A program made the translations under genes and the position numbers. The notes under the pieces were generated by a model. The model did not search any database. It had not been told where the DNA came from and worked only from the letters and a program-made list of their open reading frames with translations. This document shows positions 40,834 through 40,929 of a stretch of 64,000 bases of DNA, piece after piece. Within the stretch, counting starts at the first letter, position 1. Every line of letters begins with the position of its first letter. Origin of the DNA: a virus. Where the stretch lies: IMG/VR virus record IMGVR_UViG_3300045988_123611; one strand, 5' to 3'.

Positions 40834-40865
40834 TCCGTTGGGTTTAACCACTTCCTTACCTCCGC
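40834..40865 (-). tRNA. Permuted tRNA-Tyr(GUA)-like gene, 5' half (acceptor 5' strand, D-arm, anticodon-stem 5' strand), downstream of its own 3' half
   Basis: GCGGAGG-TA-AGGA-AGTGGTTAAA-CCCA-ACGGA. Acceptor complementary (6/7) to CCTCCCC of the 3' half; ACGGA complementary to TCCGT of the 3' half. Confidence 0.45.
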
Positions 40866-40872
40866 CATATAG

Positions 40873-40929
40873 TGGTGGGGAGGGCAGGATTTGAACCTGC
40901 GTAGCATCAGCGACGGATTTACAGTCCAT
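40873..40929 (-). tRNA. Permuted tRNA-Tyr(GUA)-like gene, 3' half (anticodon arm, V-arm, T-arm, acceptor 3', CCA)
   Basis: ATGGA-CTGTAAA-TCCGT...GCAGG-TTCAAAT-CCTGC-CCTCCCC-A-CCA, followed by CTATAT, then the 5' half. Resembles the E. coli tRNA-Tyr 3' part. Confidence 0.45.

Follow-up and report, generated by a model that had tools for sequence, protein, structure and literature searches.

The 64,000-nucleotide (nt) stretch of viral DNA analysed here (IMG/VR record IMGVR_UViG_3300045988_123611, hereafter the window) encodes on its minus strand, at 40809..40949, what is very probably a YrlA-type Y RNA of the phage: a non-coding RNA of about 140 nt with a tRNA look-alike domain. Positions 40834-40929 of this unit had previously been interpreted, from the sequence alone, as a circularly permuted tRNA-Tyr gene of the kind found in the red alga Cyanidioschyzon, in which the tRNA's 3' half precedes its 5' half. 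All of the tRNA elements named in that original prediction are present on the minus strand in the permuted order, and they most resemble those of tRNA-Tyr; the unit has its own promoter, is conserved, and is not decayed debris. Because the ends of the RNA sit at the position of the anticodon loop, the tRNA elements look circularly permuted in the gene, and because these ends are paired with each other, the topology is that of a Y RNA and not of a pre-tRNA.

The promoter P1 (40995..40967, minus strand, like all features of the RNA listed below) matches the sigma-70-like consensus TTGACA-17-TATAAT at 12/12 positions, as predicted, and is kept in the relatives L008, L012, L013 and L026. It does not lie directly before the first predicted tRNA element, AUGGA, as had been stated: a 37-nt leader, containing a terminal-helix strand and the sequence ACAGCAA, separates the -10 box from AUGGA. 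The RNA extends from the 5' strand of this terminal helix to a U-rich tail, and both its flanks and its closing stem are paired in the minimum-free-energy fold. The 5' strand of the terminal helix (AAGACUU, 40947..40941) pairs with AAGUCUU (40821..40815); the flanks are kept and covary in relatives, where AAGACCU/AGGUCU represents a compensatory change from U:A to C:G. Just inside the terminal helix is the motif ACAGCAA (40938..40932), a candidate docking site for a Ro-like protein. The joiner AUGGA-CUGUAAA (40929..40918), formerly taken for the 5' strand of an anticodon stem and its GUA loop, leads into the 5' strand of the closing stem (UCCGU, 40917..40913), whose long-range partner is ACGGA (40838..40834) at the far end of the tRNA-like domain. 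Between these two strands are a variable-arm-like (V) region of 12 nt (CGCUGAUGCUAC, 40912..40901), the last base of which is C48, a possible Levitt partner of G15; the T arm, GCAGG-UUCAAAU-CCUGC (40900..40884), with a stem of 5 base pairs (bp); the acceptor 3' strand CCUCCCC followed by A73 and CCA (40883..40873); a 7-nt acceptor-closing loop, CUAUAUG (40872..40866); the acceptor 5' strand GCGGAGG (40865..40859); and U8 A9 with the D arm AGG-AAGUGGUUAAA-CCC (40858..40840), then A. The acceptor strands form a 7-bp stem with the predicted 6/7 pairing, the exception being a C2.C71 mismatch that is kept throughout the window family. The positions that make tertiary contacts in tRNA (U8, G18G19, U54-U55-C56 and G15/C48) are all there.

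The unit recurs in phages that are only distantly related. When 1 kb around the site was compared with cultured phages by blastn, the similarity was confined to the unit itself, about 91 nt, and was found in Cronobacter phage LPCS28 (Straboviridae) and in Rhizobium phage RHph_Y65 (Kleczkowskaviridae, hereafter Y65), and it is unannotated in both. A pattern scan of IMG/VR yielded 14 further contigs of 65-194 kb that contain the unit, and an extra copy was found on a short contig binned into a metagenome-assembled genome (MAG) of the Eubacteriales. The acceptor stem occurs as GCGGAGG/CCUCCCC, ACGGAGA/UCUCCGU, CGGGGAG/CUCCCCG or GGGGAGA/UCUCCCC, with covariation of its 5' strand in Y65, LPCS28 and L092, and the closing stem as UCCGU/ACGGA, UCAGU/ACUGA, ACCGA/UCGGU or UCCAU/AUGGA. 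In an alignment of eight sequences, 92% of the cells of five helices are paired and ten pairs are changed on both sides; in 500 shuffles the observed value was attained not once for four of the five measures and once for the fifth, and the helix signal collapses once the partners are slid by 1-3 columns. This alignment and a second one of ten sequences span few independent lineages. The T arm is 100% paired with three compensatory pairs, and the V region has a mini-helix of 2-3 bp (G7-C16 and C8-G15 in the columns of alignment A1) with one covarying pair. Minimum-free-energy folds of the window, LPCS28 and Y65 RNAs all contain the terminal helix, the long-range closing stem, the T arm and the acceptor hairpin, and the D-arm sequence GGAAGUGGUUAAACCC is identical across the three distant lineages. 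Since the same order of elements is found in three very distant phage lineages and is accompanied by these helix statistics, the arrangement is not due to chance. The CCA of the subclass with a 7-bp acceptor stem (the window RNA, LPCS28, Y65 and L092) is the same in every lineage, and the loop that follows it varies in length and sequence between lineages; the discriminator base is A, C, or G/A according to lineage. In many relatives, the Y-like RNA starts directly after the 3' end of a tRNA.

The same alignments bear on whether this RNA was ever meant to decode. UCCGU has two possible partners, the local AUGGA with which it would form an anticodon arm (AUGGA-CUGUAAA-UCCGU, 40929..40913) and the long-range ACGGA, whose complementarity to it was already recognized in the original prediction. 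Over the ten aligned sequences, pairing of the long-range stem is complete (100%), with compensatory changes in four of its five pairs and no equally good result in 500 shuffles, whereas the local hairpin is 78% paired, with zero compensatory changes and 213 of 500 shuffles as good. LPCS28 and Y65 are unable to form the hairpin, which is confined to the window family, and within that family the position equivalent to U33 may be U, A or G. In tRNA anticodon loops, U33 is universal. The variability of this position and the lack of covariation in the hairpin indicate that a decoding anticodon loop is not under selection.

Resemblance to tRNA-Tyr is likewise limited in extent. In its native order, the site received no tRNA, tmRNA (transfer-messenger RNA) or YrlA call from ARAGORN or Rfam; only when the two halves were joined by hand in tRNA order did ARAGORN report an 84-nt tRNA-Tyr(gta), with the C2.C71 mismatch, a D stem of 2 bp and an unstructured V arm. 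A BLAST search of the re-joined sequence against phage tRNAs found similarity to tRNA-Tyr in the anticodon arm only. The 16-mer GGAAGTGGTTAAACCC occurs at at least 120 loci in bacterial genomes; among the matches listed, 118 have no tRNA context and are probably due to chance, and there are one true tRNA-Tyr(GUA), one odd tRNA, and one permuted unit on a MAG contig. The 16-mer matches weakly suggest that the unit descends from tRNA-Tyr.

YrlA RNAs (Rfam RF02553) have a 5' GNCGAAN0-1G motif followed by V, T, an acceptor-like stem-loop and D, and are usually encoded less than 4 kb from Ro60 on the same strand; they have been reported from 254 bacteria and 22 phages (Chen et al. 2014, PMC4201824). 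The permuted order is therefore not without precedent in phages, as had been thought. The window RNA has this order of elements and tRNA-like T and D loops, its T, acceptor and closing helices covary, and a Ro60-type gene is found on the same strand. Further likenesses to YrlA are the paired termini with a module near the 5' end, which in the window RNA would bind protein as it does in YrlA; the possible G15:C48 pair; and the second, shorter Y RNA (YrlB) that often accompanies YrlA. The differences are that the window RNA has ACAGCAA in the GAC/GUC helix, that its presumed partner is a DUF2828/DUF7788 protein and not an annotated TROVE protein, that the window has six such RNAs spread over a tRNA cluster, and that the RNA is far more tRNA-like, with its 7-bp acceptor stem, N73-CCA and leftover tRNA-Tyr-like anticodon hairpin. 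As it has no match to the Rfam model, lacks the GNCGAA motif and has a divergent presumed partner, the Y-like RNA is best filed as a variant of YrlA. What is new here is the ACAGCAA/DUF2828 variant, together with a very tRNA-like subclass having a 7-bp acceptor stem and an encoded CCA; as far as we are aware, this CCA-encoding subclass comprises the most tRNA-like Y RNAs known.

Related RNAs link the window RNA to YrlA at the level of covariance models, although every YrlA match found lies below the RF02553 gathering score of 69 bits. RF02553 gives full-length matches to a paralogue of the RNA within the window (58774-58883, 31.9 bits, E=1.5e-4), an RNA of Mycobacterium phage Lumos that is 130 nt downstream of its Ro-like gene (39.3 bits), an RNA of Bacillus phage Thrax3 in the tRNA cluster upstream of its DUF2828 gene (37.5 bits), and two sites upstream of the TROVE gene of Y65. 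A covariance model of the window RNA (R1) matches the same Lumos and Thrax3 sites and both long paralogues in the window. When applied to DUF2828 loci, R1 gave strong matches only for the subclass already known, and its mid-range matches were false positives at tandem-tRNA junctions; tandem tRNAs have been warned of as a source of false YrlA matches (PMC4201824). The Thrax3 and Lumos RNAs lack CCA. Upstream of TROVE in Y65 (L002), unannotated YrlA-like and tRNA-like sub-threshold matches stand in tandem at 2252-2366, 2431-2505 and 2722-2785, and several Y-like RNAs thus apparently form an array in this phage.

The putative protein partner in the window is a Ro60-like protein of 521 amino acids encoded at 33709-35274 (minus strand), 5.6 kb downstream of the RNA and on its strand. 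It matches Pfam DUF2828 and DUF7788/vWA and has the MIDAS (metal ion-dependent adhesion site) motif DTSGSM; Pfam TROVE has no match in it. A BLASTP comparison with TROVE aligned only the MIDAS (DTSGSM versus DISGSM of Y65) with no significant similarity otherwise, and phmmer found nothing among PDB sequences. An AlphaFold model of the protein (mean predicted local distance difference test score 71) had full-length Ro60/Rsr structures as all of its top seven Foldseek matches in the PDB. They include Deinococcus radiodurans Rsr (2nvo, E=1e-6), the Ro60 of Thermus phage phiLo (9l5y, template-modelling (TM) score 0.48/0.53), Xenopus Ro (1yvr) and human Ro60, and 9nen is also among the matches. The model thus indicates that the DUF2828 protein has a Ro60 fold, a connection between DUF2828 and TROVE that is made by fold comparison and not by sequence searches.

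Wherever a locus with the unit could be evaluated, a Ro60-type gene is on the same strand. In Y65, 91 nt separate the end of the unit from a downstream gene whose product is matched by Pfam TROVE and by the vWA domain of Ro60; LPCS28 has a DUF2828+DUF7788 gene 0.8 kb upstream of the unit; at nine IMG/VR loci, a DUF2828 homologue (53-60% identity) begins about 50-90 nt past the RNA; and in three close relatives, the RNA is 1.6-5.6 kb upstream of the Ro-like gene. The nearest homologue of the Ro-like protein in a cultured phage, with 43% identity, belongs to a Bacillus phage. DUF2828 homologues are present in at least 694 cultured-phage records, including Felixounavirus, T4-like, Listeria, Staphylococcus and Campylobacter phages and mycobacteriophages, in the last of which they are annotated as 'Ro-like RNA binding protein'. 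One of them is gp130, a Ro60-like protein of the Felixounavirus phage Bas63 that acts against the Ppl defence; the authors of that work speculated that some of the 'tRNA genes' downstream of it might be Y RNAs (bioRxiv 10.1101/2024.10.10.617714). Two other genes on the minus strand of the window, which also holds a large set of tRNAs, are an RNA ligase (Pfam RNA_ligase and OB-fold domain, 22957-24342) and an SPFH/Band-7 protein (14708-16093); a Band-7-like gene is also found near the Ro-like gene of Lumos (L062 2768-3700).

The terminal helix of the window RNA belongs to a module that can be searched for independently of the tRNA-like domain. It consists of a GAC/GUC-containing helix with ACAGCAA or a near variant following on the 5' strand, and was sought as GAC-N2-6-[ACT]CAGC[AT]A with a complementary closing 7-mer 30-230 nt downstream. 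Across 51 loci, 74 such units are on the strand of the Ro-like (DUF2828) gene and 0 on the opposite strand. Felixounavirus TP1 and Thrax3 have four each, Lumos has three, and the window has six, all on the minus strand, scattered through the tRNA cluster and several with a promoter of their own. Three of the six are long and contain the tRNA-like domain. Besides the RNA described above, these are a paralogue at 58904-58799 that has its own promoter, the acceptor loop GCCAU and the RF02553 match of 31.9 bits (R1 score 24.3 bits) and another at 58526-58403 that has the acceptor loop AACU and no CCA (23.8 bits), both identified by module match and fold as YrlA-like. The three short ones, recognized by module and fold as Y-like, are at 60038-59969, at 38594-38534 (AUCCAGCAA, kept in relatives L017-L031), and at 40747-40682 (AAGACCUU-AUCAGCAA ... 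AGGUCUU, YrlB-like). The last of these is encoded behind a second promoter, P2 (TTGACA-17-TATAAT, 40766..40794, minus strand, 12/12 match), and was found by BLAST in 11 of 12 near relatives (it is absent from the stretches of L019 that were examined) and read directly in eight.

Which 5' motif is present depends on the type of protein: ACAGCAA accompanies DUF2828 proteins, whereas in Y65 the canonical TROVE protein is accompanied by the CGAA-type UUGCGAAUG, which is near the GNCGAAN0-1G consensus; the tRNA-like domain is the same in both. This correspondence supports a division of labour in which the 5' module would dock the protein and the tRNA-like domain would have an effector role. In Escherichia typing phage 1 (TP1, L063), the four module RNAs (6795-7563, starting at 6795, 6962, 7350 and 7437) occupy unannotated gaps among tRNA genes, with the Ro-like gene a short way upstream, and could represent the Y RNAs hypothesized for gp130 of Bas63. 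Module RNAs are unannotated in all four cultured-phage records that were checked (L062-L065).

Several observations weigh against classifying the window RNA as a Y RNA of the YrlA type. The GNCGAAN0-1G motif is not in its leader, where ACAGCAA is found instead, and the RF02553 model does not match it even at E<=10, nor does it match the Y65 copy. No canonical TROVE gene was found in the window, the best tblastn match of the Y65 TROVE protein (E=0.085) being within the RNA ligase open reading frame (ORF); the model of the DUF2828 protein is only moderately confident (predicted TM score 0.57, TM scores of 0.4-0.5 to its matches); and the distance of 5.6 kb between the RNA and its presumed partner exceeds the usual 4 kb. 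The unit is also dispensable, for the near-identical L018, L020, L021, L025 and L027 have a small ORF cassette in its place.

A permuted tRNA gene would account for some of the same features. In Cyanidioschyzon, the transcript of such a gene forms a bulge-helix-bulge, is circularized by a splicing endonuclease and a ligase, and is reopened as a decoding tRNA; we know of no such enzyme system for permuted tRNAs in bacteria. Like the permuted genes of Cyanidioschyzon merolae and other algae, the window unit places the tRNA 3' half before the 5' half within a single transcript, which, once circularized or ligated at its anticodon loop and with its acceptor ends opened, would give a decoding tRNA-Tyr(GUA), and the tRNA-Tyr call for the re-joined sequence, the RNA ligase gene, and the ability of the window family to form AUGGA-CUGUAAA-UCCGU are all consistent with such a product. 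It is very unlikely nonetheless. The folds have no bulge-helix-bulge (3-4-3) at the leader/trailer junction but a long terminal helix with internal loops and the closing stem, so that leader and trailer make up a conserved, putatively protein-binding helix bearing a protein-type motif; LPCS28 and Y65 lack the anticodon hairpin, which does not covary and has A or G for U33 in relatives; and the D stem of 2-3 bp, the poorly structured V arm and the C2.C71 mismatch are poor credentials for a decoding tRNA. An ordinary tRNA-Tyr(GUA) is already encoded at 56574-56663 according to ARAGORN, the unit is linked to Ro-type genes, and the two long paralogues in the window, having acceptor stems closed by loops of 4-5 nt, cannot be split tRNA genes. 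That the unit is non-functional debris, a 3' remnant of one tRNA-Tyr copy next to a 5' remnant of a second, left by indels or by intron or homing-endonuclease traffic, is equally hard to credit. The tRNA cluster is indeed highly mosaic (HNH genes, an intron-split tRNA-Leu, cassette swaps among relatives), the relative L003 has an ordinary tRNA fused to the 5' half only, and tandem tRNAs produce false positives with model R1; but the dedicated promoter, the conserved module in the flanks, and the survival of the arrangement in three very distant lineages with compensatory changes in every helix argue against debris, and equally against the decayed, unrelated duplicates that the original prediction had itself raised as an objection. 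A missing tRNA-Tyr 5' half upstream of the unit and a missing 3' half downstream, which would have pointed to a pair of intron-split tRNA-Tyr genes, were searched for and neither was found. A two-piece tmRNA, as in alpha-proteobacteria and cyanobacteria, is also permuted around the acceptor, with the T arm and CCA before the 5' acceptor piece, and it is to the T arm, acceptor and CCA that the weak Rfam scores of the window RNA (tmRNA 19.2 bits, tmRNA_permuted 15.2 bits) are due. Both scores are far under the gathering score of 47 (tmRNA_permuted, RF04321), however, ARAGORN's search for permuted tmRNA returned none, and the Y-like RNA has neither a tag reading frame nor pseudoknots. A phage attachment site (attP) copying the 3' part of a host tRNA would leave the 5' half and the covarying flanks unexplained, and no integrase was noticed near the unit, though no search was aimed at integrases; a tmRNA or an attP segment is a vanishingly small prospect.

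Processing of the acceptor loop would refine the Y RNA assignment without replacing it. RNase P might cut before G40865 and trimming might follow up to the CCA end (40873), leaving a tRNA mimic in two base-paired halves, which we consider possible but on the whole doubtful. The free CCA end might be charged, or might be a decoy, substrate or sensor for tRNA-targeting enzymes or defence nucleases. Cleavage is plausible because a 7-bp acceptor stem is followed by an encoded N73-CCA that is invariant, in contrast to the loop beyond it; the tRNA tertiary contacts are in place; and in the many relatives that have the RNA immediately behind the 3' end of a tRNA, it enters the tRNA-processing pathway anyway. 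There is also a precedent in the YrlA of Mycobacterium smegmatis, whose acceptor stem likewise has 7 bp, which RNase P cleaves, and which exists in vivo with CCA and in two halves (PMC4201824); that RNA differs from the window RNA, with its fully encoded CCA, in that only C is encoded and CA is added, that its partner is a canonical Rsr, and that its motif is GNCGAA. On the other side, the C2.C71 mismatch is conserved in the window family, the change of discriminator from A to C or G/A by lineage speaks against conserved recognition by tyrosyl-tRNA synthetase, CCA is missing from the YrlA-like RNA at 58403-58526 and from those of Thrax3 and Lumos, and neither Salmonella Typhimurium YrlA nor D. 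radiodurans Yrn1 is cleaved (PMC4201824).

How a phage Y RNA of this type may work can be proposed by analogy with Ro60-Y RNA particles. The strong promoter would produce an RNA of about 140 nt, the ends of which would pair into the terminal helix with GAC...ACAGCAA and thereby dock on the ring of the DUF2828/DUF7788 Ro-like protein. The middle of the RNA would be the tRNA look-alike, with the closing stem standing in for the anticodon stem and followed by V, T, the looped 7-bp acceptor and D; we infer that this domain tethers the ring to a partner that recognizes tRNA or degrades RNA. Host polynucleotide phosphorylase (PNPase) offers a precedent for such a partner: the published account of phiLo (PMC12135203) describes a phage Ro60 (PDB 9L5Y, 9KOP) that binds two phage Y-like RNAs, Yrl1 and Yrl2, encoded just upstream of it, as well as host PNPase, which is recruited in vitro. 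The phiLo protein, the structure of which is among the best matches to the model of the window protein, resembles the proposed partner in being a phage protein of Ro60 fold; its RNAs differ in that they were recognized through a stem-bulge-stem and a CGAA motif and not through a tRNA-like domain. The particle might handle structured or damaged RNA during infection, in RNA quality control or repair, or possibly in counter-defence. On a broader hypothesis that we consider rather improbable, the CCA subclass (the window RNA, LPCS28, Y65 and L092) would be a naturally split tRNA-Tyr mimic whose two base-paired pieces present a free, possibly chargeable CCA on the Ro-like ring, as a decoy, sensor or repair platform against tRNA-attacking defences, and the GAC...ACAGCAA RNAs would be the Y RNAs of DUF2828 proteins.

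The surroundings of the Y-like RNA contain several other elements. Its neighbours are an ORF and two tRNA-Ser genes upstream, and the P2 RNA and tRNA-Leu downstream. Two small ORFs were rejected: a five-codon ORF beginning with ATG in the leader (MKKRL*), because it is so short and because the ATG is missing in relatives such as L012 and L026 and in those where the RNA directly trails a tRNA, and a 74-amino-acid ORF (40530-40754) that overlaps the P2 RNA and a tRNA-Leu exon and is likely spurious. In L018 (5130-5273), and also in L020, L021, L025, L027 and L026, a small cysteine-rich ORF (MKKKRRKMRPQPPWYFSFDTDNCYRCKNKNGCGGCKF...) stands behind the same promoter as the tRNA-like RNA, which it replaces or adjoins; one relative has both, and promoter-led cassettes have been swapped among near-identical genomes. 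In the recombinant of L003 (4280-4410), a full ordinary tRNA that seems to be Leu(CAA)-like precedes CTATAC, and of the Y-like RNA there is then just the 5' half (the acceptor 5' strand, the D arm and the closing-stem strand); the recombinant lies just upstream of the Ro-like gene. Rfam also matches tRNA at two unannotated sites directly upstream of the Y-like RNA of LPCS28 (L001), 121 and 113 nt long (2716-2836 and 2846-2958), and the length of these matches suggests that they carry intervening sequences.

The tRNA-Leu(UAA) gene of the window (39748-40573, minus strand) is itself split by a 738-nt intron (40538..39801) into exons at 40573..40539 and 39800..39748. The intron interrupts the gene between U34 and A35, which we take to be the classic site of group I introns in tRNA-Leu, and contains an ORF for an HNH endonuclease (40355..39909). 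The split gene was missed by both ARAGORN and Rfam, and the Rfam group I intron model has no match there; intron-less tRNA-Leu alleles with exactly matching junctions are found in L018, L024 and L026. Directly downstream of the 3' exon is a RAGATH-33 RNA (39606-39734, minus strand) that scores 124.5 bits, above its gathering score. Elsewhere on the minus strand, a 90-nt tRNA with the anticodon CUA (57237-57326), labelled 'Pyl' by ARAGORN, may be an amber suppressor and raises the possibility that stop codons are reassigned or suppressed in the phage. Two Rfam tRNA matches of about 46 bits each on the same strand (59882-59956 and 58531-58603) were not called by ARAGORN, and the latter is directly upstream of the Y-like RNA at 58526-58403.

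These results remove the lead of a permuted tRNA gene from this phage and put a concrete Y RNA assignment in its place. The GAC...ACAGCAA module pinpoints candidate RNA partners of DUF2828 proteins, detected at best weakly by Rfam, in Felixounavirus, Bacillus, Mycobacterium and uncultured phages. The Ro-like proteins in question are widespread among cultured phage genomes, and even for the Bas63 version, with its anti-Ppl activity, the RNA partners had merely been guessed among tRNA genes. The switch between CGAA with TROVE and ACAGCAA with DUF2828, on the same tRNA-like domain, amounts to a natural experiment in the reading of Y RNAs by Ro rings, and the subclass with an encoded CCA is a good system in which to ask what purpose tRNA mimicry serves. 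If the proposed pairing is true, the long search for the Y RNAs of the DUF2828 Ro-like proteins, which hundreds of cultured phages carry, would end with the GAC...ACAGCAA RNAs.

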